Source of the DNA: Candidatus Abzuiibacterium crystallinum
GTDB lineage: Bacteria > Omnitrophota > Omnitrophia > Omnitrophales > Abzuiibacteriaceae
Length of the DNA stretch: 64,000 bases
Direction of reading: 5' to 3'
NCBI GenBank assembly: GCA_002787155.1
Contig: PCVY01000065.1
Span: 1,286 to 65,285 of the forward strand
A program made the translations under genes and the position numbers. The number at the start of each line of letters is the position of its first letter. Position 1 is the first letter of the stretch. Shown piece after piece: positions 231-12,195 of this stretch. Below the pieces are notes generated by a model. It saw only the letters and a list, made by a program, of their open reading frames with translations. It searched no databases and was not told the DNA's origin.

Positions 231-432
231 TTGCCGGCCGCGAAGTCCTACAAATTGAGATGCCAAACGGCTCGTGTGCGGTTTGAAAATTTGATACGCT
301 GCACGTTCAGAAGTACCTGCTGCGTAAGCTTGAGTGGCGTGGAGAAAAATTGGCAGATTAAAAAGTGTGAAAAGGAAAACAAGAAAATATTTTTTCTTCA
401 AGTGTGAGGAGTTTTTCAATGAAACACCATCA

Positions 433-777
433 CTAAACGGGCATTCGGCTGATCAAATTTTGAGCACGCGGAGTTGAAGAGCGCGGTACCGCAATCCCAA
501 ATCCTTTTAAAGGATTGCCGTGCACATCTTTACGGCCTTGTTCATAAAGGCAGCATTCGATCTCTTCTTCCTGAAGCCTGGCCAAAACCCCTTGGGCATC
601 TTCAAAGGCATCCGTGTCATACACTTGAACCCACGGTCCCTTTTCAGCTTTAGAGCGAAATCGCCCGCGTGAAGGCTGTGCCTCATCCGCTGGTTTTTCT
701 ATCTTGCGGCGCGTTAAGATACTAACCGCCGCATAAACCGCGATAAAAATAGCTAAATAAATAAATATCATTCTCAT
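433..777 (-). CDS. Small membrane-anchored hypothetical protein, possibly DUF2007-like
   Basis: 114 aa with an N-terminal transmembrane helix (IFIYLAIFIAVYAAVSIL) and a short soluble tail. A possible TTGCCG-17-TACAAT promoter sits upstream on the minus strand. Confidence 0.4.
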   Translation of the reverse strand: MRMIFIYLAIFIAVYAAVSILTRRKIEKPADEAQPSRGRFRSKAEKGPWVQVYDTDAFEDAQGVLARLQEEEIECCLYEQGRKDVHGNPLKGFGIAVPRSSTPRAQNLISRMPV

Positions 778-872
778 GATTTAACCCGTTCGGTCCGGCT
801 TATTGTATGCCATTATACCAATTGTAGCTTATCAGTACTTAATCGGCAAATCTCCTCCTTTTCAAGAGGGGT

Positions 873-1952
873 TTAACCGCCCAATTTTTGAAGTGCCCAT
901 TCGGCATGTTCGCGCACCAATTTAGAGCCATGCTTGAGCGCTTTTTTTAAAACAGGAATAGCGGATCGATCATTGGAATTACCTAAAACCACACAAGCAT
1001 TTCTCAGTAACTGTTTGTGGCGCGCGCGCAAAATAGCCGTTCCTTTAAATTGCTTTTCATAAACGCCTTGACTGGCTAAATCAAAAATGTTTTCCAAATT
1101 TAAATGGGGACCAAATCCTTCGGCAGCCGTCAGTTCGCGGCAATCGGTTTCCTGCTGTCCATTCGTGAAAGGACAAATATTTAAACAGTCATCGCAGCCA
1201 AAAACCCAATGTCCTATTTTGTCCCGAAATTCGCTTGGAATGGCTTCTTTATTTTCGATTGTCAAATACGCAATACATTTGCGCGCATCAAGCGCTTTAT
1301 CTTCTTCGATTGCCTCTGTGGGGCATACATCAATACATAACTGACAAGTACCGCAGCTGCCTTCAAAAGCCATGTCCGGCTCAAGATCTAAATCGGTTAC
1401 CAGTTCTGATAAAAAGAGCCATGGCCCGTATTGAAGTGAGAGCAATTGGGTTTGCTTGCCAATGAATCCAAGGCCGGCTTTTTCTGCCAAATCACGTTCG
1501 GCAAGGGGTTTGGTGTCAATAGCGCTGTGAAAGCGTACGGGTTTTCCGGCATGTGCCGTTAGCTGCTTTTTCAGTATCTCTAATTTTTCTTTGATGACCC
1601 AATGATAATCTTTTCCCCAAGCATAACGCGCGACTCGACCCTTGAGTGCCGCGGAACCGAGATCTGTGGGTGAGGTCAGACCTCCGTTGTTAACAGAACC
1701 TGTGCTTGAATTAGAATAATAATTAAGCCCTAACACAATAACTGATTTAGCTTCAGGAAATTCCGACCAAAATTGCTCGGAACGGCGGGCAAAGTCTTCT
1801 AAGTAACTCATGTTACCGTGTTTGCCCTGTGCCGCCCATTCATCGATCCGTGCGCCGGCTTGAGCAGCCGTGGCAGGCAGTGTAATACCGCACACATGAA
1901 ATCCGACTTCTAAAGCGAGACGTTTGATTGTTTCGGCATTTAAGCGGTCCAC
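873..1952 (-). CDS. queG: tRNA epoxyqueuosine reductase
   Basis: Two 4Fe-4S motifs (CGTCQLCIDVCPT and GCDDCLNICPF) and C-terminal HEAT-like repeats (LRNACVVLGNSNDRSAIPVLKKALKHGSKLVREHAEWAL) are typical of QueG. Confidence 0.88.
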   Translation of the reverse strand: MDRLNAETIKRLALEVGFHVCGITLPATAAQAGARIDEWAAQGKHGNMSYLEDFARRSEQFWSEFPEAKSVIVLGLNYYSNSSTGSVNNGGLTSPTDLGSAALKGRVARYAWGKDYHWVIKEKLEILKKQLTAHAGKPVRFHSAIDTKPLAERDLAEKAGLGFIGKQTQLLSLQYGPWLFLSELVTDLDLEPDMAFEGSCGTCQLCIDVCPTEAIEEDKALDARKCIAYLTIENKEAIPSEFRDKIGHWVFGCDDCLNICPFTNGQQETDCRELTAAEGFGPHLNLENIFDLASQGVYEKQFKGTAILRARHKQLLRNACVVLGNSNDRSAIPVLKKALKHGSKLVREHAEWALQKLGG

Positions 1953-1953
1953 T

Positions 1954-2601
1954 TTATTTCTCCCGCGAAGGGCACCATGTCCGAACAGCGCATTCGCTGC
2001 AACGGGGCCGGCGCGCCCGGCAAGTCAACCGGCCGTGCCAAATGATAAGGTGTGAAAATTGAGTCCATTGGCTTTGGGGAATTATTTGATTAAGATCGTA
2101 TTCAATTTTAACGGGATCCGTGTGGCACGTTAAACCCAATCGGCAGGTCACGCGTTTCACGTGTGTATCAACCGCAATTCCCGGAACGCCAAAGGCATTC
2201 CCTAAAATCACATTTGCCGTTTTGCGGCCAATGCCGGGGAGCGACACCAACTCTTCCATTTTTTGAGGCACGCGGCCGTTGAAACGCTCTAAAAGCGCCC
2301 GGGCACACGCTTGAATGTTTTTGGCTTTGGCTCGGTAAAACCCGGTGGAATAAATGTCACGTTCAAATTGCTTCAAATTTGCTTTGGCATAATGGCTGAC
2401 AGTTTTGTATTTTCTGAACAAAGCGGGCGTCACCTGATTAACGCGCTCATCTGTACATTGAGCGGATAAAATGGTTGCCACCGCCAGCTGCCATGGATTG
2501 TTAAAATGAAGGGCTATTTTTCGCGCAGGAATCGCCCGAGAGAGACTTTCGATAATTTGAAGAGCACGCGCTTTTTGAGCCGATAAACTTTTGGTTTTCA
2601 T
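1954..2601 (-). CDS. nth: Endonuclease III (DNA-(apurinic or apyrimidinic site) lyase)
   Basis: HhH-GPD motif (LPGIGRKTANVIL...VDTHVKRV) and a C-terminal 4Fe-4S cluster loop (C-x6-C-x2-C-x5-C). It lies one nucleotide downstream of queG. Confidence 0.9.
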   Translation of the reverse strand: MKTKSLSAQKARALQIIESLSRAIPARKIALHFNNPWQLAVATILSAQCTDERVNQVTPALFRKYKTVSHYAKANLKQFERDIYSTGFYRAKAKNIQACARALLERFNGRVPQKMEELVSLPGIGRKTANVILGNAFGVPGIAVDTHVKRVTCRLGLTCHTDPVKIEYDLNQIIPQSQWTQFSHLIIWHGRLTCRARRPRCSECAVRTWCPSREK

Positions 2602-2813
2602 CTTTAGCGATTCTTTAACTTAGGGTGAATGATGCCGATAAGCATAACAATTGCCATACCGGTTTTGCCTGCGTAAAAGCTGTAGACAAAGCGTAGGTTA
2701 TTTTAATAAGATATCACAAATTGACAATGCATGACTACGGAATCATGCTATTCAATCAAGCGGCCAAAAAAACGGGTGATCGAGCTTTTTTCATGTTAAT
2801 AAAGCGTTTAGGC

Positions 2814-4157
2814 ATGAAACAAATTGTTTTACTGCTTGTTTGCACTACTTTTCTCTTTTCAATACCCGCCTCAGCCGATCCGAATGACGATTTATATACC
2901 CAAAAATTAAGACACCCTGAAGAAACTTCCGCGAATGCCATCCGTAGCCGCGCCCTCACCCGCTGGATTTTCGGATTACCGGGCCTCCCGATTGATTTAT
3001 TAAAAGCAGGCGCTGATCCGACGATGAGCTACCTCGAAAACAAGCGCATCGTTAAAAAAATTGATTGGGCATGGACTGAAATAAAAAAATATGGTTTCAA
3101 ACCTGAAACTCGTTTTGCGCCGGGCGGTTTCCGCTCCGGTTTGGGATTAAAAATCGAAGGGCATCGGTTATTCAAAACAGATCTTTCTTTACCTCATTTG
3201 CAATATAATGTCTTTGGCGGATTTGTGAACAAAGGAAAGAACGCGCATTATTATGATGTCGGAGCCGACTACAAAATATCATTTGCCAATAACCCCAGCC
3301 TTTATCACGCGAGCACCGCTGCCTTTGAGCATAGACCTCGGGAAGATTTTTTTGGTATCGGACCTGATACCAGTTTGGGAGATGAATCCGATTACAATAA
3401 AGACATGCTTCGCCTGGATACCCGGCTCGGTTATCAATGGACGTTTTCCCTCAAGACGGAGGGGTTCTTTCGCTACAGGCACATCCAGATTGGCAATGGC
3501 CACGAAGAGGACAGTTTTAGAATTAAAGAACATTTCACCGAGGATCAGGTGCCGGGCATTCATGGCAGCAATGTGATCGATTTGGGATTTCTTTTTGAGC
3601 ATGATACCCGTGACATGATTGAAGACCCGATGCAGGGCGGTTACGAAAAGTTTGAAATTTCATTCTCTGACGATGCAAGCGGTGATAATTTTCATTACAT
3701 GAACATTGAATTCCGTGCGGCCCGCTATTTCCAATTGCTCTCAGACCGCCGGATTTTAGCGCTTCGCTTTTATGCCGGGCGTTCGCAGCCTTTGGGCGGC
3801 GGCCAAGTACCTTTTTTTGATTTGCAGCGTTTGGGCGGCTACGGCAATCAAACCTCCGAAAGCGACATGTTACGGGGCTATGAATACAACCGTTTCTTTG
3901 ACCAAACCGCCATTGCCTTTACACCTGAGTATCGTTACAAAATTTGGAACTATAATAATTTTGATGCGGATTCGGTTATTTTTGCGGACATCGGCGGTGT
4001 GTCAAAAGAAATTCATTCGATGGGGTTTGACAAATTGCGCGTTGATTACGGTGTCGGGCTTCGTGTGAAACATCTTCGCGATACTTTTCTTTCGATTGAA
4101 GCAGCGCACGGGAACGAAGGAATCCAATTTTACATTAGGTCCAAAGCGCCTTTTTAA
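2814..4157 (+). CDS. Omp85-family (Bac_surface_Ag) outer-membrane beta-barrel protein
   Basis: Signal peptide MKQIVLLLVCTTFLFSIPASA at the refined ATG start (2814). Barrel-type motifs RGYEYNRFF...EYRY and DYGVGLRV, and a C-terminal aromatic residue (…KAPF). The track ORF starts at 2721 but has no signal peptide there. Confidence 0.65.
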   Translation: MKQIVLLLVCTTFLFSIPASADPNDDLYTQKLRHPEETSANAIRSRALTRWIFGLPGLPIDLLKAGADPTMSYLENKRIVKKIDWAWTEIKKYGFKPETRFAPGGFRSGLGLKIEGHRLFKTDLSLPHLQYNVFGGFVNKGKNAHYYDVGADYKISFANNPSLYHASTAAFEHRPREDFFGIGPDTSLGDESDYNKDMLRLDTRLGYQWTFSLKTEGFFRYRHIQIGNGHEEDSFRIKEHFTEDQVPGIHGSNVIDLGFLFEHDTRDMIEDPMQGGYEKFEISFSDDASGDNFHYMNIEFRAARYFQLLSDRRILALRFYAGRSQPLGGGQVPFFDLQRLGGYGNQTSESDMLRGYEYNRFFDQTAIAFTPEYRYKIWNYNNFDADSVIFADIGGVSKEIHSMGFDKLRVDYGVGLRVKHLRDTFLSIEAAHGNEGIQFYIRSKAPF

Positions 4158-4170
4158 AGCGGGATAAACC

Positions 4171-5814
4171 ATGAAATTTTCAAGCACATTGTTAGGCATT
4201 TTAATCGGTTGCTCCGTCCTCTTGCCGACGGGACAAGCGGATTCTGCCAGTCTTTCCCGGCTTGATCAAAAAATTTCCGGTCGGGAAACAACTTTTTACC
4301 GTGAGTTTTTTGATCAAGTGGTCTATTACCCGCTTGCCAGACTTTTGCGGTGGGATCAATACATCACACGCCATGTCGGCATGGAAGCATTGGATGTGAA
4401 TGTATTTGACGAAGTACCCGATTCGGCCTTCTTTGAAAACCGACTGGGCAAACAATCAATGTCTATTTCCGAAATCGCAAAAGGGCCCGGCGGCACCCCG
4501 CCCGAAACAAAAGGGCCTTGGGTAGTTACCAAGGGTAAGGATGACGGTTACACCGTCGGGTTTTTTATCAAAGATGCCAAGGGTGATAAATATCTTTTGA
4601 AGTTTGACCCGGCTGATCATCCGGAAATGGCCACATCTGCTGAAATCATTGCCCACAAGTTTTTTTATGCTTTTGGCTACCATGTCCCGAGTTACGCCAT
4701 CGTTTATTTCAAACCCGATATTTTGGAGGCAGGACCAAACGCAACCTACTACAACGGAAACGGTTTTAAAAAGAAACTCGATAACAGCGCTATTCAAGAA
4801 TTGCTGCAAAAAGCACCGGTGACAAAAAACGGCCGTTATCGTGCCGTGGCGAGCCGTATTTTAGACGGTATTCCCAAAGGATACATGAGTTTAGAGGGCA
4901 GACGCTCAAGCGATCCGGACGATTTGATTCCGCACGAAGACCGCCGCGAGATTCGCGCGCTCGAAGTGATCGGGGCCTGGACAAATCAATATGATCTGCG
5001 TTCCGGCAACACGCTTGATATGTTAATCGATGAGAATGGGAAAGCTTACTTGAAACATTATATCATTGATTTTGGGTCCTCTTTCGGCAGCGCCGGCTAC
5101 CGGGCCAAGCACCCTTCCGCTGCTCATGAAACCGTGATCGACTTCGGGGCCATTGCGCGCGCCTTTGTTGAATTGAAAGTAGAAGATAAAGTATGGGAAG
5201 ACCGCTGGGATCAAAACGGAAGAACCATTGCTTATCAATCGTTGGGTTATTTCGATAATATCCATTTTAATCCTGCCGCCTGGCGCTCGCAGTTGGATCA
5301 AGAAGCCTTTCTCAGACTAACCGAAGCTGACGGGTATTGGGCTTCTAAAATCATTGCACGATTCAGCGATGAGATGATCCGCGCTGTTGTGAAAACGGGC
5401 GAAATCACCAACCAAGAAGCAGAATCATTTTTAATTGATACGCTGATCGAACGCCGGGATATGATTGTCCGTTACTGGTTCTCAAAAGCAGTCCCTCTTG
5501 AGTCCATCCAAGTAAAGCCGGTGAATACCACAACTTATTCGCTGAATTTTGAAGACCTGGCGGTGGCTCACGGTATAGACTCACCCATGAGCGTCAAATA
5601 CAGATGGCGCACTAAACGCGGGTCATGGCAGGAATACCAGGCCTCTCCAGCTTCTCTTCAGCTAGATACCGACCGCCTGAAAGAAACAGTTTTCATAGAA
5701 CGGTGGTCATCGGCGTCTCAGAAATGGTCATCACTCCCCCTTCGCCTCAAATTAAGCCGCTCAGCCTCTCAAGAACCGTTTCACTTAAGCGGCATTAATC
5801 GCGGGCACGATTAA
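4171..5814 (+). CDS. Sec-exported (probable lipoprotein) protein with PI3/PI4-kinase-like catalytic motifs
   Basis: N-terminus MKFSSTLLGILIGCSV with a lipobox-like LIGC. Residues 144-160 read K-FDPADHPEMATSAEII (compare PI3K FKNGDDLRQDMLTLQII). Residues 275-305 read DLRSGNTLDMLIDENGKAYLKHYIIDFGSSFG (compare DRHxxNIMV...HIDFGHFLG). The gene starts 13 nt after the Omp85 gene. Confidence 0.45.
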   Translation: MKFSSTLLGILIGCSVLLPTGQADSASLSRLDQKISGRETTFYREFFDQVVYYPLARLLRWDQYITRHVGMEALDVNVFDEVPDSAFFENRLGKQSMSISEIAKGPGGTPPETKGPWVVTKGKDDGYTVGFFIKDAKGDKYLLKFDPADHPEMATSAEIIAHKFFYAFGYHVPSYAIVYFKPDILEAGPNATYYNGNGFKKKLDNSAIQELLQKAPVTKNGRYRAVASRILDGIPKGYMSLEGRRSSDPDDLIPHEDRREIRALEVIGAWTNQYDLRSGNTLDMLIDENGKAYLKHYIIDFGSSFGSAGYRAKHPSAAHETVIDFGAIARAFVELKVEDKVWEDRWDQNGRTIAYQSLGYFDNIHFNPAAWRSQLDQEAFLRLTEADGYWASKIIARFSDEMIRAVVKTGEITNQEAESFLIDTLIERRDMIVRYWFSKAVPLESIQVKPVNTTTYSLNFEDLAVAHGIDSPMSVKYRWRTKRGSWQEYQASPASLQLDTDRLKETVFIERWSSASQKWSSLPLRLKLSRSASQEPFHLSGINRGHD

Positions 5815-5821
5815 AACGCTC

Positions 5822-8266
5822 ATGTTTGCAGACTTCATTACAAAACTGATACAACCCATTGTTAAAATCCGCCGCAGCGAATGGCTGAAAGCGGGCATGA
5901 TGTTTATTTATGCCTTTACCATTTTTGCCACTCTCTACGTTTTTAAACCGGTCCGTTCTTCCCTTTATCTAGACGCCCGCGGCGCAGAAAACTTGTGGTT
6001 AGCTTACTTTTTTGAAGGTGTCGTTCTTTTTGTCATCACCTACCTTTATGTCAAACTAGCAGACAGATTTAAAAACAAGAATCACTTCTTTACCTTCACG
6101 ACTCTTTTTTTAATTTTCAATATCTTAATTTTCTACTTCTGCTTTCAAATGAACGTGAAAGAAAGCTGGCTGGTGCTCTTCTTTTACGGCTGGGTGGCCA
6201 CGTATTCGGTGACCGTTGCCACGCAATTTTGGACCATGGCTAATGATATTTTTAACATGGACGAAGCCAAACGGTTATTCGGATTTATCATCAGCGGCGG
6301 CAGTTTGGGCGGTGTGGTGGGCGGTGGTTTAACCAAATTGTTTGCCGAGCGGTTTGGAACGGAAAATTTGCTTCTCATGCCGGTCCTTTTTCTGACAATT
6401 TCGATTATTGTGACTGAAATTGTCTGGCGAAGCGAACGGACAAAGGCAGGCCCGCTTAAGGAAGTTAAGAAATCGGGTAAGCATGAAAGCCTCACTCGTG
6501 TTTTGCGGCTTTTATTTAAATCCAGGTACTTGCTCTTAATTGCCGGCATTGTGTTGTTTGCAAAAGCCGTCTCAACCATTGTGGATAATCAATTCAGCGG
6601 GGTCGTTGAACTGGCCATCCGTGAAAAAGATGTCCGCACTGCTTTCTTCGGCGGTTTCTTTTCGGCCCTCAACATGGTTTCTTTTATTTTGCAGCTTTAT
6701 GTCACCAGCAAAGTCCTGCGTTATTTAGGAATTAGTATCGCCCTTTTGATGCTTCCCGGCGGACTATTGATCGGTGCTTCTTTGACGATCTTATTCCCCA
6801 TCCTTCCCTTTGCCATGGCAGCCCGTATGTACGACGGCGGACTCAACTATTCGATTAATTTATTAAGCAAAGAAATTCTTTACCTGCCGGTCGCAAGTGA
6901 AACCCGTTACCGCGTAAAACCAGTGATTGACATGTTGGTTTTTCGTCTCGCCAAAGTATTTGCAGCCGCTTTGATTTTCATAGCCCTGAAGTTTGTCGGA
7001 TTGCGCGTTGATCAGCTGGGCATTGTTGTCCTGGTGATTCTGCCGTTTTGGTTGTGGACAGCTTGGCGGGTGAAACACGAGTATGTTCAATCAATTCGCC
7101 AGCTTTTAACTAATGAAAAACGCGTCAAACGTTTTAAAGAAACTTCCCAGAAGCGCGTGACGGACGTTTTGATGAATCTTTTTGAAGAAAAATCCTGCCA
7201 AGAATTAAGGGATTTATTTTATGACATTCCCTCGCATATGAGAAAAATGTCGGCGGCCGCTTGTCTGGCTTTTTATGGCGGCGGCAGAGACGTGGGTAAG
7301 GTAGGTAAATTAGTTCAAGAAATGGTGCGTTATGAAGCGCTGGAGTATCAAAAAAACAGGCCCTTGTTAAATCCGCGAACGGAGAGTACCGGTCATTACC
7401 AATGGGTGGATGAGTACCTGGTAAAATATCTCAAACTCGAACACCCCAGCGCTAAAAGCAAACTCAGTGAAAAAGAAAATGAAATTCTTGAAAGAATTTC
7501 GGGCATGCTGCAAGACACGAAATGCGATGGGTTGAGTAAACGCAAAGCCATCTCCATTTTAAGAACACTGGGAACGCAAAATGCTTTCGATTTGCTTCTG
7601 GGGGCCTTGCCGGTGACCCGTGATAATTCTATTCGTTTTGACATGATCAAGGGCATGAATCATATTCACACAAAATTATCCAATTATTCTATCCCGCAAA
7701 ATGCCGTTGAAGCCGAGGTCCGTTATGAAATTGAAAATCATAAAGCCATTTTAACTGTGATTCACTTCTATAAATCGCAGGAGAAAAAAACTTCTTCCGT
7801 TGATGAGGATTTTCTTTTAGCGACCCTCAAGATTATCCGGGAAGAAAGTCTTGAACGCATCTTTCGGTTATTGGGATTGATCTATCCAACCGAAGCGATT
7901 CAGACCATCTTCGAGCGTTTAACGGATGAAGAGGCTAGTGAAGACCTTCATGGCAAATCCATCGCCATCGAACTGTTAGGGCATATCGTCAAACCGGAAC
8001 TGTACCACCGCCTGCATCTCTTAGTCGATCATGACCGGTGGCATAAACACCGTCAAACAAACCCCAAAGAAGTCATTAAACATTTCTTGATGGGGGAAGA
8101 CTGCTGGTTTTCCGTGTGTGCTGCTTTTGTGATTGCAGAACTGAGAATGACAGAGCTATACTCGCTTTTTGAACATTTGAGCGGCCGAGAAGCGCCCATT
8201 GTCAAAGAAGCCGTTGCGATTGCTAAATCAAAAGCGGAATCTTTCGATACAGGTACAAACAAATAA
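5822..8266 (+). CDS. TLC/NTT-family (ATP:ADP antiporter-like) transporter fused to a C-terminal HEAT/armadillo-repeat domain
   Basis: The N-terminal 430 aa are polytopic. The segment RRSEWLKAGMMFIYAFTIFATLYVFKPVRSSLYLDARGAENLWL..YVKLADRF aligns with the conserved start of nucleotide transporters (PF03219), including the GAE motif. The C-terminal ~380 aa are alpha-helical repeats (…AAACLAFYGGGRDVG…LRTLGTQNAFDLLLGAL…). Confidence 0.7.
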   Translation: MFADFITKLIQPIVKIRRSEWLKAGMMFIYAFTIFATLYVFKPVRSSLYLDARGAENLWLAYFFEGVVLFVITYLYVKLADRFKNKNHFFTFTTLFLIFNILIFYFCFQMNVKESWLVLFFYGWVATYSVTVATQFWTMANDIFNMDEAKRLFGFIISGGSLGGVVGGGLTKLFAERFGTENLLLMPVLFLTISIIVTEIVWRSERTKAGPLKEVKKSGKHESLTRVLRLLFKSRYLLLIAGIVLFAKAVSTIVDNQFSGVVELAIREKDVRTAFFGGFFSALNMVSFILQLYVTSKVLRYLGISIALLMLPGGLLIGASLTILFPILPFAMAARMYDGGLNYSINLLSKEILYLPVASETRYRVKPVIDMLVFRLAKVFAAALIFIALKFVGLRVDQLGIVVLVILPFWLWTAWRVKHEYVQSIRQLLTNEKRVKRFKETSQKRVTDVLMNLFEEKSCQELRDLFYDIPSHMRKMSAAACLAFYGGGRDVGKVGKLVQEMVRYEALEYQKNRPLLNPRTESTGHYQWVDEYLVKYLKLEHPSAKSKLSEKENEILERISGMLQDTKCDGLSKRKAISILRTLGTQNAFDLLLGALPVTRDNSIRFDMIKGMNHIHTKLSNYSIPQNAVEAEVRYEIENHKAILTVIHFYKSQEKKTSSVDEDFLLATLKIIREESLERIFRLLGLIYPTEAIQTIFERLTDEEASEDLHGKSIAIELLGHIVKPELYHRLHLLVDHDRWHKHRQTNPKEVIKHFLMGEDCWFSVCAAFVIAELRMTELYSLFEHLSGREAPIVKEAVAIAKSKAESFDTGTNK

Positions 8267-8273
8267 GTTTCCG

Positions 8274-9011
8274 ATGGTATTCATTCATTTCTCGAAACAA
8301 CTGAAGCAGGACATCTGGTTATGGGTCAGTACCGGCTTACTGGGTGTTTTTCTGCTGGGAATGAGCGGCTGCCAGTCGGTACCGCTCATGGGGGGTGTGG
8401 GTGCGCAGGGCGAGTTGATTTATTTAACGCCGATCCGTGACATCCCCAAACACATCCAAGAATGCGCCGAATTACAAGACCTCTCAAATGAAGAATCAAA
8501 AATTAACTATCTGATCTATCGCGTGCAAAAATCCGCTCTTCCCTTTACCCGAAACGGTTCCACTTATAGCAGTGAAAACGCGGCACAATTTCTCAGGTGG
8601 AAACTAAACCGGCCGAATTGGCGGCCGTTGGTCCGCAGCGCCCGTGAATTCGTTATCATTATTACCCGTGGTTCATCTAAATCCGGCTTACCTTATGAAG
8701 TAAAATTACCGGACAGAACACACCATGAACTTAAAGCCATTATGATCAATGAGCTTGATTTTCTGGAAGAATATTTAAAAACACGGGAAGCAGGATCTGC
8801 GGCTCATTTGCCCGTCAGCTCCAAAAAAACAGAGGAGGAATCCGCTCAGAATTTACAGCCGGTTCCAGAATCAGACATTCACCGCCGGCATAGTGAACCT
8901 CAACCATTCAGACGCCCGTTTGTTGCCTCACCGCGTTTTGACGATGACGACTATGGACAAACCTCATCCGTATCACCCGCCCAGCAAAACCGTCAGCAGC
9001 CCCGCACATGA
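8274..9011 (+). CDS. Hypothetical lipoprotein with a low-complexity acidic/Q-rich C-terminus
   Basis: Start refined to the ATG at 8274, just after the stop of the preceding gene. Signal peptide with LLGMSGC lipobox. The C-terminal tail is …RFDDDDYGQTSSVSPAQQNRQQPRT. Confidence 0.5.
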   Translation: MVFIHFSKQLKQDIWLWVSTGLLGVFLLGMSGCQSVPLMGGVGAQGELIYLTPIRDIPKHIQECAELQDLSNEESKINYLIYRVQKSALPFTRNGSTYSSENAAQFLRWKLNRPNWRPLVRSAREFVIIITRGSSKSGLPYEVKLPDRTHHELKAIMINELDFLEEYLKTREAGSAAHLPVSSKKTEEESAQNLQPVPESDIHRRHSEPQPFRRPFVASPRFDDDDYGQTSSVSPAQQNRQQPRT

Positions 9012-9781
9012 ATTTCACCGTTATTTGTCTCAATACTTGGGGACAAAACGAACCTTTTGAAAAACGAATGCGTCTCATCACTGCCGAAATCAGAAAATAC
9101 AAACCGCAAGTGGTTTGCCTGCAGGAAGTCTTTGAACCCGTCTTAACGCAAAAGCTCATCAAAGAAATCGGCTTCGGGCATGCGTTTGCCAATCTGGCCG
9201 CAGGGCTTTTGATTTTGTCGCATGACAGGATGGAAGATAAAAAGGAAGTCAAATATCAACATCAATCGACGCTCGAAAATAATGACCGCCGTTTTATCTT
9301 AACGGAGATTCATGCCAACGGAAAAAAATGCTGGATAGGCAACACGCATTTATCCTGGAAGGCGGCTGATGAGACAGCGCGCACCATGCAAACACGCGAA
9401 CTCGCTGCCACGCTGGACGCATTAAAAGCACCCGTGCTGGTGATGGGCGATTTTAACTGCACGCCGGAAAGCGAAGCAATGGCTGTGTTAAGTAAAAGCG
9501 GTTTTACCAATGTATATGACCGCCTTTACCCGGGGAAAAATGTTTTTACGTGGGACAATCAGCGAAACCCCTATCTTAAAACACATGCCGCCATCCTGCC
9601 CAATCGGCGCATTGACCATCTTTATATGAATCAAGCCTTTCAGGAAGTGTTTAAACCCCAAAGCTGCCGGCTCATTTTCACCACGCCTGATGAAGCGGGC
9701 GATTTCCCGTCCGATCACTTTGGTTGGCTAGCTACCTTCCGCACCTGGGGTCAGGTCCCGGACCTGACCCCAAGTCTTTGA
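9008..9781 (+). CDS. Endonuclease/exonuclease/phosphatase (EEP) family phosphoesterase
   Basis: Motifs CLQEV, GDFNCTPES and SDHFG. The last nine codons are encoded by the REP palindrome. Confidence 0.8.
   Translation: MNFTVICLNTWGQNEPFEKRMRLITAEIRKYKPQVVCLQEVFEPVLTQKLIKEIGFGHAFANLAAGLLILSHDRMEDKKEVKYQHQSTLENNDRRFILTEIHANGKKCWIGNTHLSWKAADETARTMQTRELAATLDALKAPVLVMGDFNCTPESEAMAVLSKSGFTNVYDRLYPGKNVFTWDNQRNPYLKTHAAILPNRRIDHLYMNQAFQEVFKPQSCRLIFTTPDEAGDFPSDHFGWLATFRTWGQVPDLTPSL
9747..9771. repeat. REP palindrome GGGGTCAGGTCC-C-GGACCTGACCCC
   Basis: 25-nt sequence with 12-bp perfectly complementary arms. It lies at the convergent junction of the EEP gene and the RAYT gene. Confidence 0.85.
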
Positions 9782-10374
9782 ACAAATTCTTGGCTACCAA
9801 GAATTCCGTTTCCAACAGCATTTTGCAATGGGTTTATATTGGTTATTAACCCTTTGTGGACAAAAGTCTGATAATCAACCGGCGATTGAAACTGATTCAT
9901 AATTTCCAATGAACCTAGAAAAGAGGGTGGTTCGTCACGCACAAAATAACGCATGCTTGACCAAACATAATCGACAGGATTGTCTACTAATTTGGCTTTG
10001 CATGGGTTTAGGTGAATATAGCGCGATAATTCTAAAAGATAGGTATCTTTATCAATAACAATCGATTTATATCTTCCTTGAAATAAATGACCAACTCGTT
10101 CGTGTCTATAATTAAATCGCATCGTATAAGTCCCAATTAATCTTTTCATAAAAACAGCGAGATTGGCCTGTTTGGTCTGAATGAGTAAATGAAAATGGTT
10201 GGGCATGATACAATAAGCATAAATAACAACTTCATCTTTCTCCGCACACTCAACCAATATGCTCAAAAACATACGATAGTCGTACTCTTCCCTTACAATT
10301 TCTCTCTTTTCGTTACCTCGAGAGAAAACGTGATAATAAGCACCTGGAAATTGTAGACGTAATGATCTTGCCAT
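9751..10374 (-). mobile_element. REP-associated tyrosine transposase (RAYT, IS200/IS605 TnpA-like Y1 HuH enzyme)
   Basis: HuH motif MPNHFHLLIQ and a downstream catalytic Tyr region (…NYRHERVGHLFQGRYKS…). Flanked by two inverted copies of the same REP palindrome. Confidence 0.85.
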
Positions 10375-10466
10375 CAGAAATATGTGTGGGGAAACTTAAA
10401 AAAAACAGCTGTGGGAGATAACTAATATTACTCATCCGTCTATAAAAGTCAATCAAAAAAAATCTT

Positions 10467-10491
10467 GGGGTCAGGTCCGGGACCTGACCCC
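10467..10491. repeat. REP palindrome, inverted copy (GGGGTCAGGTCC-G-GGACCTGACCCC)
   Basis: Exact reverse complement of the 9747 copy. It encodes the last codons of PolX. Confidence 0.85.
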
Positions 10492-12195
10492 ACGGAAAAA
10501 AGATTCGATTTCGGAGGCGGAGCGGGTATTTAAAACGTGTTTTTTATCCAGCCATCCTTTTCGGGCAATGCCGACACCAAAACAAATGTCCCCTAACCCT
10601 TCGGGATCGTGGGCATCCGGATTAATGCTGGTCAAAAGCTTGCGTTCACCGAGGCTTTTGAGCAAACGCCAGTCAAGATCCAAGCGATGCGGATTGGCAT
10701 TGAGTTCAATCACGCAGCGATTCTTTTCGCATTCGTCAAAAATCTCCTCATAATCGAGATCATACCCGGCTCTGCCGAGCAGCAAGCGGCCGGAAATATG
10801 CCCAATCATGGTGGTATAAGGATTCTGAGCAGCGCGGATGAGCCGTTTGGTCATTTGGCCGCGGTTCATGCCGAAACGGCTGTGAACGGAGGCAATGATA
10901 AAATCAAACGTTTTAAGAATTTTGTCGGGGTAATCGAGCGAGCCGTCTTCTAGAATGTCTGATTCGATCCCCTTAAAAATCTTTATCTTCTTAAATTTTT
11001 TCTGCAGCCGATCTATTTCTTGGTGCTGCGATTCAATCCGTTTTGCCGAAAGTCCGTTGGCATAATGAGCCGATTGGGAATGATCGCTGATGCCGATATA
11101 CGCATGCCCCAGATCTTGTGCGGTTTGAACCATCGTCTCAAGACTGGCACTGCCGTCCGAATACGTTGAATGGGCGTGAAAAATGCCTTTGATGTCTTTT
11201 ATCTTGAGAAGAATGGGCATTTTCTCCTTTTTGGCTGCTTCTATTTCACCCATATTTTCACGTAATTCCGGCTCAATGTAAGCCATCCCGAGTTTTTCAT
11301 AAATAGCAGCTTCTGAACGGCAAGGAACTAATTTGCTGCCTTTAAACAATCCGTATTCGTTCATTTTAAGGCCGCGCTGTTTGGCAAGCGTCCTGAGGGC
11401 CACGTTGTGTTCTTTTGATCCCGTAAAGTGCTGGAGCGCATAAGGATATTCAACGGAAGAAACAGTCCTTAAATCAACCGGAAGACCGGATTTCAGAATC
11501 ACACTTGATTTGGTCTCACCTTGCGCCACTATGCGCTCCACGTTCGGAAACGATGCAAACTGCTTGTGAACGGCAGCGTGTTTAGCAGCAGCGGCTAAGA
11601 TGTCAATATCATGCACAATTTCTTTGTGCCGCCGCAAACTTCCGGCGATGGCAATGGCTTTCACTTCTTTGTGCTTTTTTAAAAATGCAACCAATTCAAG
11701 CGCTTCATGGCTTGCCTGTGAGACCAAGAAGAAACCTTTGGTCTTTTGATAATGTTCGATTCCTTGTAAAATTTTTTGCTGCGACTTTTCGCCAAAACCT
11801 TCCAACGCGAGCAATCGGTTTTCTTTGCAGGCATATTGAAGTTCGGCGATGTTTTTAACGTCTAACTTTTCATAAAGCGTTTTAGCACGTTTAGGACCAA
11901 CACCCGGAATATGAAGAATCTCCAAAAAACCTTCCGGAAAGGATTTTCTAAGTTCATCGTGATCTTTGGAATAGCCTTTTTTGTAAAGTTCTTTGATGAG
12001 TTCCGAAATACCCTTACCGACACCGGGAATTTTGGTGAGTGTGTCGCTTTCGGCTAAAACTTCGAGATTTTCGTTAACGGATTCAATCGACCTGGCAGCG
12101 TTTTGGAACGCCCGCACACGGAAAGGATTAGCGCTCTTGAGTTCCAAGAGCACTGCCATTTCTTCTAAGATCTCTATAACTTTGTTGCGGTCCAT
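10471..12195 (-). CDS. polX: DNA polymerase X family protein with C-terminal PHP phosphoesterase domain
   Basis: N-terminal HhH/Pol-beta nucleotidyltransferase region (GVGKGISELIKE…, DIDILAAAA). C-terminal PHP motifs (HAHSTYSDGSASLETMV, ISDHSQ, IELNANPHRLD). Confidence 0.9.
   Translation of the reverse strand: MDRNKVIEILEEMAVLLELKSANPFRVRAFQNAARSIESVNENLEVLAESDTLTKIPGVGKGISELIKELYKKGYSKDHDELRKSFPEGFLEILHIPGVGPKRAKTLYEKLDVKNIAELQYACKENRLLALEGFGEKSQQKILQGIEHYQKTKGFFLVSQASHEALELVAFLKKHKEVKAIAIAGSLRRHKEIVHDIDILAAAAKHAAVHKQFASFPNVERIVAQGETKSSVILKSGLPVDLRTVSSVEYPYALQHFTGSKEHNVALRTLAKQRGLKMNEYGLFKGSKLVPCRSEAAIYEKLGMAYIEPELRENMGEIEAAKKEKMPILLKIKDIKGIFHAHSTYSDGSASLETMVQTAQDLGHAYIGISDHSQSAHYANGLSAKRIESQHQEIDRLQKKFKKIKIFKGIESDILEDGSLDYPDKILKTFDFIIASVHSRFGMNRGQMTKRLIRAAQNPYTTMIGHISGRLLLGRAGYDLDYEEIFDECEKNRCVIELNANPHRLDLDWRLLKSLGERKLLTSINPDAHDPEGLGDICFGVGIARKGWLDKKHVLNTRSASEIESFFRGVRSRT

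Follow-up and report, generated by a model that had tools for sequence, protein, structure and literature searches.

A large unannotated family of predicted exported atypical kinases encoded beside a POTRA-less Omp85 barrel in Omnitrophota

Closest described systems and the kinase gene

The systems closest to the gene described here, a kinase-like open reading frame in a 64,000-nucleotide stretch of DNA (the window) from Candidatus Abzuiibacterium crystallinum (contig PCVY01000065.1), are atypical kinases on the one hand and Omp85-family barrels on the other. CtkA (JHP0940; PDB 3akj/3akk) is a kinase delivered by Helicobacter pylori to host cells. HipA kinases are cytoplasmic toxins with a HipB-type antitoxin, and Fam20C / Golgi casein kinase and CotH are kinases that act outside the cytosol. 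The PI3K/PI4K proteins (PF00454; PI4K-II-alpha, VPS34, Legionella MavQ and LepB) are also among the closest systems. For the barrel, the likeness is to two-partner secretion (TPS; TpsB/TpsA), PlpD and the noNterm Omp85 proteins, and it consists in an Omp85-superfamily barrel encoded beside a Sec-exported partner. In TPS, TpsB combines two POTRA domains with a ShlB-type barrel and TpsA carries an N-terminal TPS domain. The noNterm class of Omp85 proteins has no POTRA domains and its function is not known (Heinz & Lithgow 2014, PMC4104836; Leptospira study, PMC11358297). A third relevant group, the NTT-HEAT fusions of nucleotide carriers, occurs widely in free-living bacteria and has no characterised function, according to Major, Embley & Williams 2017 (PMC5381601).

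The kinase gene starts with ATG at 4171 on the forward strand, ends at 5814 and encodes 547 amino acids (aa). Its product matches the hypothetical protein COV74_08195 from a Candidatus Omnitrophica metagenome-assembled genome (MAG; CG11_big_fil_rev) at 100% identity. The TAA stop codon of an Omp85-family gene (4155-4157) lies upstream across a gap of 13 nt, and a TLC/NTT-type nucleotide-transporter gene starts 7 nt after the kinase stop codon, an arrangement that a first-pass annotation of this DNA had described correctly. That annotation had also read the product as a Sec-exported lipoprotein with PI3K/PI4K-like catalytic motifs and proposed a functional link to its neighbours. Our analysis places the protein in an unannotated, very large family of predicted exported atypical kinases and in a gene module of a new kind. 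The searchable literature yielded no description of the kinase family or of the module, and no paper linking Omp85 with a kinase in Omnitrophota.

Fold, active site and family placement

The kinase gene and its parts are as follows:
4171..5814, forward strand: predicted exported atypical kinase-fold protein of 547 aa, new unnamed family
4171..4239, forward strand: predicted signal peptide, aa 1-23, with a probable signal-peptidase-I site GQA↓DS (sequence, homologue N-termini)
4384..4455, forward strand: family-specific N-terminal motif, aa 72-95 (conservation, model pLDDT 80-96)
4507..4770, forward strand: kinase N-lobe, aa 113-200 (secondary structure, conservation)
4933..5100, forward strand: catalytic core, aa 255-310 (conservation, model)
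5491..5811, forward strand: C-terminal FN3/Ig-like beta-sandwich, aa about 441-547

Conservation was assessed in 52 homologues with 37-55% identity to the window kinase and in 131 representatives of 50%-identity clusters. K144, E158, D275 and N280 were invariant in the 52 homologues, and D300 was kept in at least 90% of them. Among the 131 representatives, K144 and N280 were each conserved in 92%, D275 in 93% and D300 in 95%, and position 158 was E or D in 90%. A chance origin of the kinase motifs was therefore rejected. The first-pass annotation had named the positional conservation of Lys144, Asp275, Asn280 and Asp300 as a check on its own motif assignment, and these positions were found conserved in both sets.

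An AlphaFold model computed from the 52-sequence alignment reached a predicted local distance difference test score (pLDDT) of 90.3 and a predicted template modelling score (pTM) of 0.90. In the model, K144 ends a strand (140-144), E158 lies in a helix (153-168), D275-N280 come just before a strand (281-288), and D300-F-G comes just after another (291-298). As modelled, this is the canonical layout of beta3 Lys, alphaC Glu, catalytic loop and DFG. Since the residues occupy canonical kinase positions in the model, the three motif blocks of the first-pass annotation had been correctly assigned. The bilobal fold, Lys, Glu, Asp, Asn and DFG Asp that define the atypical-kinase fold superfamily are all present in the window protein.

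The N-terminal motif (aa 72-95; consensus A.nvN..dEVpdSsWftNR) is specific to the kinase family; its residues E81, F87, F88, N90 and R91 were invariant in the 52-sequence alignment, and R91 was kept in 99% of the 131 representatives. The N-lobe consists of a Gly-rich beta1-beta2 hairpin (K123, G126), the beta3 Lys (K144) and the alphaC Glu (E158). An Arg-rich signature, pHehRReLRG (H255, R258, R259, R262), stands directly before the catalytic loop, D275-x4-N280, and this is followed by H296-x3-D300-F-G, the equivalent of the DFG motif. R91, R259, R262, D387, W390 and R428 are invariant or near-invariant in the family, R224, R245, H255 and R258 also count as invariant, and the C-terminal FN3-like sandwich is the least conserved part of the mature kinase.

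The family is large. At 90% clustering the search returned more than 1,380 homologues, and not one of them bears an informative name; an exhaustive hidden Markov model search recovered 3,626 clusters (50% identity) at E<=1e-3 and 1,146 at E<=1e-30. NCBIfam assigned no family to the kinase, PADLOC gave no assignment for any of the five operon proteins (described below), and no relative of the kinase was found in the plasmid collection. One family member (P0286; 1158 aa, at 428-3904 of the short contig L087) has an extra C-terminal portion of about 600 aa with no Pfam match, and an MFS transporter gene lies downstream of it on the opposite strand.

In the structural comparison the model scored highest against CtkA (14.4, with 211 residues aligned), followed by PI4K-II-alpha (12.8 / 12.4), Fam20 / Golgi casein kinases (12.6-12.8), CotH (12.4), actin-fragmin kinase (11.5), HipA-family kinases (9.7-11.2), Legionella MavQ (10.3), and class III PI4K and SMG1 (about 7-8). 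Foldseek also ranked CtkA first (probability 1.00, target-normalised TM 0.55), then Rio2, VPS34 and Fam20. Structure prediction, which had been suggested earlier as a test of the kinase assignment, thus returned a confident kinase-fold model whose matches include CtkA, PI4K-II-alpha and VPS34. Sequence searches of the PDB, with the single kinase protein or with the 52-sequence profile, gave only noise (E>0.4).

Two known families were considered and rejected. PF00454 (PI3_PI4_kinase) matched neither the window kinase at E<=0.1 nor the 52 homologues at E<=1, and PI3K/PI4K membership by sequence was rejected on this ground. The segments D275-L-R-S-G-N280 and I-D300-F-G are conserved, but D-x4-N plus DFG is superfamily-wide, and position 277 is Arg/Lys and not His. 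The only Pfam signals were below threshold, namely HipA_2 (PF20613) in 12/52 members and HipA_C (PF07804) in 15/52. The best HipA score, that of the member P0092, was 26.8 bits where the cut-off is 27, and the window kinase scored 11.6 bits; the mapped matches covered only profile positions about 6-90, which is the N-lobe. The hhalign comparison of the kinase with Escherichia coli HipA gave no match. Membership in a HipA-like family was rejected because the matches do not exceed the gathering threshold and, where mapped, are confined to the N-lobe, because the family has a signal peptide, and because no helix-turn-helix antitoxin occurs among its recurring neighbours.

Therefore, with a sub-threshold HipA signal only and PF00454 never matching, the protein is a member of a new family within the CtkA / HipA / PI4K-II / Fam20 / CotH fold group and not a member of PI3K/PI4K. 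Of the earlier reading of PI3K/PI4K-like motifs, the conserved kinase core and its layout in the model stood, and the family assignment did not. CtkA is the closest fold, at 11-15% identity and with no sequence-level match. Compared with CtkA, the window kinase adds a Sec signal peptide, about 90 aa of conserved sequence near the N-terminus, a helical region and, at the C-terminus, an FN3-like domain, and has an obligate Omp85 partner, none being known for CtkA. Unlike HipA and HipT, it has a signal peptide and no antitoxin-like neighbour. With Fam20 and CotH it shares neither a sequence relation nor a Fam20/CotH Pfam match (among the 52 homologues), and it is set in a bacterial periplasm/outer-membrane context with an Omp85 partner.

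Export signal, barrel partner and gene neighbourhood

A hydrophobic, signal-peptide-like N-terminal segment was found in 162 of the 166 full-length kinase members. The window kinase contains the string LIGC at aa 11-14, whose Cys at residue 14 is early for a lipobox, and a canonical signal-peptidase-I site, PTGQA↓DS, at residues 19-25 after the hydrophobic core. A strict lipobox, defined as a signal peptide ending in [LVI][ASTVI][GAS]C, occurred in 2 of 115 full-length homologues, whereas the majority carry cleavage sites of the AxA type. Since the hydrophobic N-terminus is nearly general and the sites are mostly of AxA type, the kinase family is, as judged from its sequences, Sec-exported. 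The early Cys, the signal-peptidase-I site and the rarity of the lipobox led us to reject lipoprotein status for the kinase. The export half of the first-pass claim of a Sec-exported lipoprotein is thus retained and the lipid anchor is dropped.

The genes around the kinase gene, with what supports their assignment, are as follows:
2814..4157, forward strand: Omp85 barrel, POTRA-less (noNterm type), constant partner of the kinase
5822..8266, forward strand: NTT-HEAT type carrier, 814 aa (PF03219, PDB match)
8274..9011, forward strand: DUF5329 protein, probable lipoprotein (PF17263)
9008..9781, forward strand: gene of the endonuclease/exonuclease/phosphatase (EEP) family (PF03372)

A five-gene operon Omp85-kinase-NTT-DUF5329-EEP is plausible because the gaps are short, terminator-like sites in the operon scan did not exceed the number given by shuffled sequence, and a promoter-like site precedes the Omp85 gene. 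The gap between the transporter and DUF5329 genes is 7 nt, and the start of the EEP gene overlaps the DUF5329 stop by 4 nt.

The mechanically called Omp85 open reading frame begins at a TTG at 2721; the likely start is the ATG at 2814, which gives a predicted signal peptide MKQIVLLLVCTTFLFSIPASA cleaved before DP. The only Pfam match of the product is PF01103, with no ShlB-type domain. Its model is a 16-strand barrel that keeps the loop-6 motif (L/V)RG(Y/F) and lacks POTRA domains, in place of which there is a conserved N-terminal extension, predicted to be helical at aa about 40-92. The partner gene has all the characters of the noNterm class (16-strand barrel, loop-6 RG(Y/F), no POTRA). The text of the Leptospira paper on this class (PMC11358297) makes no mention of a kinase. 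The barrel is structurally closer to BamA/TamA/Sam50 than to FhaC/CdiB. In contrast to TPS, it has no POTRA or ShlB-type domain, and no TPS domain was detected in its kinase partner. TPS membership was rejected on the absence of POTRA domains, the match to PF01103 only, the BamA/TamA-like barrel and the lack of any Pfam match above threshold in the kinase.

Gene neighbourhoods were compared in loci sampled from one genome per species and from metagenome contigs. Same-strand adjacency of Omp85 was scored in the 74 loci whose upstream DNA extends for at least 1.5 kb. Clustering of open reading frames showed an Omp85 gene adjoining the kinase gene in 73 of them, and tblastn showed one in the 74th. 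The two genes overlap or are separated by short gaps, and Omp85 usually comes first; the order is reversed in two loci, including the acidobacterial L086. In the 44 well-flanked loci, with at least 6 kb on both sides, Omp85 was present in 44, an NTT-type carrier in 25 (57%) and DUF5329 in 14 (32%). A functional tie between the kinase and the Omp85 barrel is supported. The link to the neighbouring genes proposed in the first-pass annotation therefore held for the barrel in all scored loci, and for the carrier in the 25 of 44, where the gene order varies and more than one phylum is represented.

Writing Omp85 as O, the kinase as K, the NTT carrier as N and DUF5329 as D, the gene orders over all loci were O-K alone (28), N-D-O-K (13), O-K-N (10), N-O-K (10) and O-K-N-D, the order of the window (9), the remainder being rarer forms including DOKN. 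DUF5329 is almost always directly downstream of the NTT gene. Because D nearly always follows N and the pair stands on either side of O-K, the cassette resembles a pair of sub-modules, O-K and N-D, that can be combined either way round. The O-K-N trio was likewise seen in MAGs of Acidobacteriota and on a 4-Mb chromosome that is unclassified. Two separate Omp85-kinase pairs were seen in single genomes (L057 and L070 on contig JBMONI010000012.1; L020 and L038 in MAG nzgw333), and tandem kinase genes were seen in a few loci (O-K-K or N-D-O-K-K), which shows that the module has undergone duplication within genomes.

The carrier has an N-terminal ATP/ADP-carrier-like membrane domain and a C-terminal domain of about 370 aa. 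It matched PF03219 (TLC) at 58.2 bits (cut-off 21) and the plastid ADP/ATP carrier NTT1 (PDB 9j3j) at E 3.8e-9, and it aligns with solved plastid and bacterial ADP/ATP carriers, including the signatures FW..AN.I...EAK and KE..Y.P. At the level of sequence, it is a real homologue of these carriers. With the fusions described in the accessible part of PMC5381601 it shares the architecture of TLC plus a C-terminal domain, its HEAT_2 match being weak and below threshold (17.9 bits against a cut-off of 27.7). That part of the source links NTT-HEAT to cyclic-nucleotide-binding domains and contains no link to a secreted kinase, Omp85 or DUF5329. In two loci outside Omnitrophota (L073 9602-14031 and L074 4130-9019), two NTT paralogues lie near the kinase gene, one with the transporter domain only (426-524 aa) and one of a long form (878-947 aa), which hints at a division of labour between carriers.

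The DUF5329 protein (PF17263, E 4.1e-17) has a lipobox-like LLGMSGC in the window copy, and a lipobox-like xGC was seen by eye in roughly 20 of 30 cluster members; it is probably a lipoprotein. A homologue search returned close relatives only, and a literature search on DUF5329 found no paper. The product of the EEP gene (PF03372, E 1.9e-19) has no signal peptide. Because this gene is only an occasional neighbour, found downstream in only two other loci (L060 10086-10805 and L069 3533-4255), it is probably no core part. In L001 a protein tyrosine phosphatase / dual-specificity phosphatase gene (2950-3609) lies upstream of Omp85. The flanking phosphatase-type genes of L001, the window, L060 and L069 could encode opposing phosphatases, and they are too sporadic to be core parts.

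Housekeeping genes surround the operon on the reverse strand: epoxyqueuosine reductase (queG, 873-1952) and endonuclease III (nth, 1954-2601) upstream, and a PolX-type DNA polymerase with a PHP domain (10471-12195) downstream. Between the operon and the last of these lies an IS200-like Y1 transposase gene (9751-10374, reverse strand; PF01797, E 2.1e-15), flanked on both sides, at 9748-9770 and 10468-10490, by the perfect palindrome GGGTCAGGTCC-n-GGACCTGACCC. The half-site of the palindrome occurs 6 times in the window, where 0.44 matches are expected, and the first palindrome overlaps the 3′ end of the last operon gene. The transposase and palindromes (9748-10490) look like a REP/RAYT-type element.

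Proposed function and alternative readings

We tentatively favour, at somewhat below an even chance, a reading in which the protein is a catalytically competent, Sec-exported atypical kinase of the cell envelope, a fixed partner of the POTRA-less Omp85 barrel of the same operon, with ATP supplied by the carrier. After Sec export the kinase would dock on the barrel, perhaps on its N-terminal helical extension, or be handled by it, and would phosphorylate an envelope substrate at the barrel. The inner-membrane NTT-HEAT carrier would exchange cytoplasmic ATP for periplasmic ADP and so provide ATP for the kinase. ATP is generally considered absent from the periplasm, and the envelope phosphorylations known so far draw on other phosphate donors. 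A parallel is Fam20C, which in the secretory lumen depends on transported ATP. By analogy with CtkA, Fam20C, CotH, actin-fragmin kinase and HipA, all of them protein kinases, a protein substrate is slightly favoured. The more specific proposal that Omp85-kinase and NTT-HEAT-DUF5329 together form a self-contained extracytoplasmic phosphorylation module, in which a dedicated inner-membrane ATP/ADP exchanger feeds the periplasm, is rather doubtful at present.

Several observations weigh against this envelope-kinase reading. The Foldseek E-values are weak, none being at or below 1e-3, and kinases of lipids, of sugars and of proteins all belong to the fold group. The N-terminal helices of the barrel are of low confidence in the model (pLDDT <50) and so lend no support to the docking idea. 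The carrier is missing within 6-8 kb in 43% of the well-flanked loci and is thus not obligatory in cis. The NTTs that have been characterised bring ATP into parasites, and the translocases of Omnitrophota have been read in this way (PMC10066038). Finally, most loci come from one phylum and the synteny is partly inherited, the cassette often following rpsP-trmD-rplS-rnhB. Therefore, we put weight on the rearranged gene orders, on the loci outside Omnitrophota and on the different context of the window cassette, which stands after nth and queG and not after rpsP-trmD-rplS-rnhB.

Among the alternatives, the likeliest, although its probability is low, is that the kinase phosphorylates a membrane or cell-surface glycolipid, lipopolysaccharide (LPS) or glycan at the outer membrane and that the barrel is its membrane platform. 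Lipids are the substrates of PI4K-II-alpha and MavQ, and xylose is that of Fam20B; the conserved Arg-rich surface of the kinase family is compatible with an anionic lipid, LPS or glycan substrate. However, no member of the 52 matched PF00454, the best and most of the top structural matches are protein kinases, and no lipid- or LPS-biosynthesis genes recur in the neighbourhood.

The model of the first-pass annotation, in which the barrel exports the kinase to the surface or medium in a two-partner-like manner and the kinase acts on a host or prey cell, appears distinctly improbable. The gene pairing is as constant and tight as that of TpsB/TpsA operons, and the nearest structural neighbour, CtkA, is itself a kinase delivered to host cells. 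Ultra-small cells and a presumed dependence on a host characterise many Omnitrophota (PMC10066038). The barrel, however, lacks POTRA domains and no TPS domain was detected in the kinase, as described above, and neither the Acidobacteriota MAGs nor the 4-Mb genome that also carry the module are likely to belong to obligate parasites. Moreover, an enzyme outside the cell would have no ATP supply, the linked carrier being in the inner membrane. None of the findings speaks specifically for surface export, for lipid substrates or for a target in host or prey.

We give little credence to a role in nucleotide uptake, in which the carrier would import host or environmental ATP and the barrel and kinase-fold protein would form a capture or processing stage. 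The carrier is indeed homologous to ADP/ATP carriers, and the characterised NTTs are all importers or exchangers for energy parasitism (PMC5381601), as the Omnitrophota translocases have also been interpreted (PMC10066038). However, the catalytic Asp, Asn and DFG Asp are as conserved as the ATP-binding Lys, and the conservation therefore points to catalysis rather than mere ATP binding. Omp85 barrels are not known as nucleotide channels, and the occurrence of NTT-HEAT fusions in free-living bacteria noted at the outset also argues against this role. Least probable of all is a kinase fold used for other chemistry (AMPylation as in SelO, glutamylation as in SidJ) or as a regulatory pseudokinase: several atypical kinase-fold families catalyse non-kinase reactions and about 5-9% of the 131 representatives lack one or another catalytic residue in the alignment, but the full canonical residue set, with its order and spacing, is conserved in over 90% of members, and no sign of a flipped nucleotide-binding site was noted, although no search aimed at it was made.

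The large size of this family with predicted export, its intact active site and its link to an ATP/ADP-carrier homologue make periplasmic ATP-dependent chemistry directly testable. If the proposal of a self-contained module is true, no programmed supply of ATP to the periplasm of bacteria would have been described before it, and it would give a first function to three orphan families, namely noNterm Omp85, NTT-HEAT and DUF5329. The association offers a first functional handle on the noNterm barrels, on the NTT-HEAT carriers of free-living bacteria and on the probable DUF5329 lipoproteins. It also calls for caution when ‘ATP/ADP translocase’ genes are taken to mark energy parasitism in Omnitrophota (PMC10066038).

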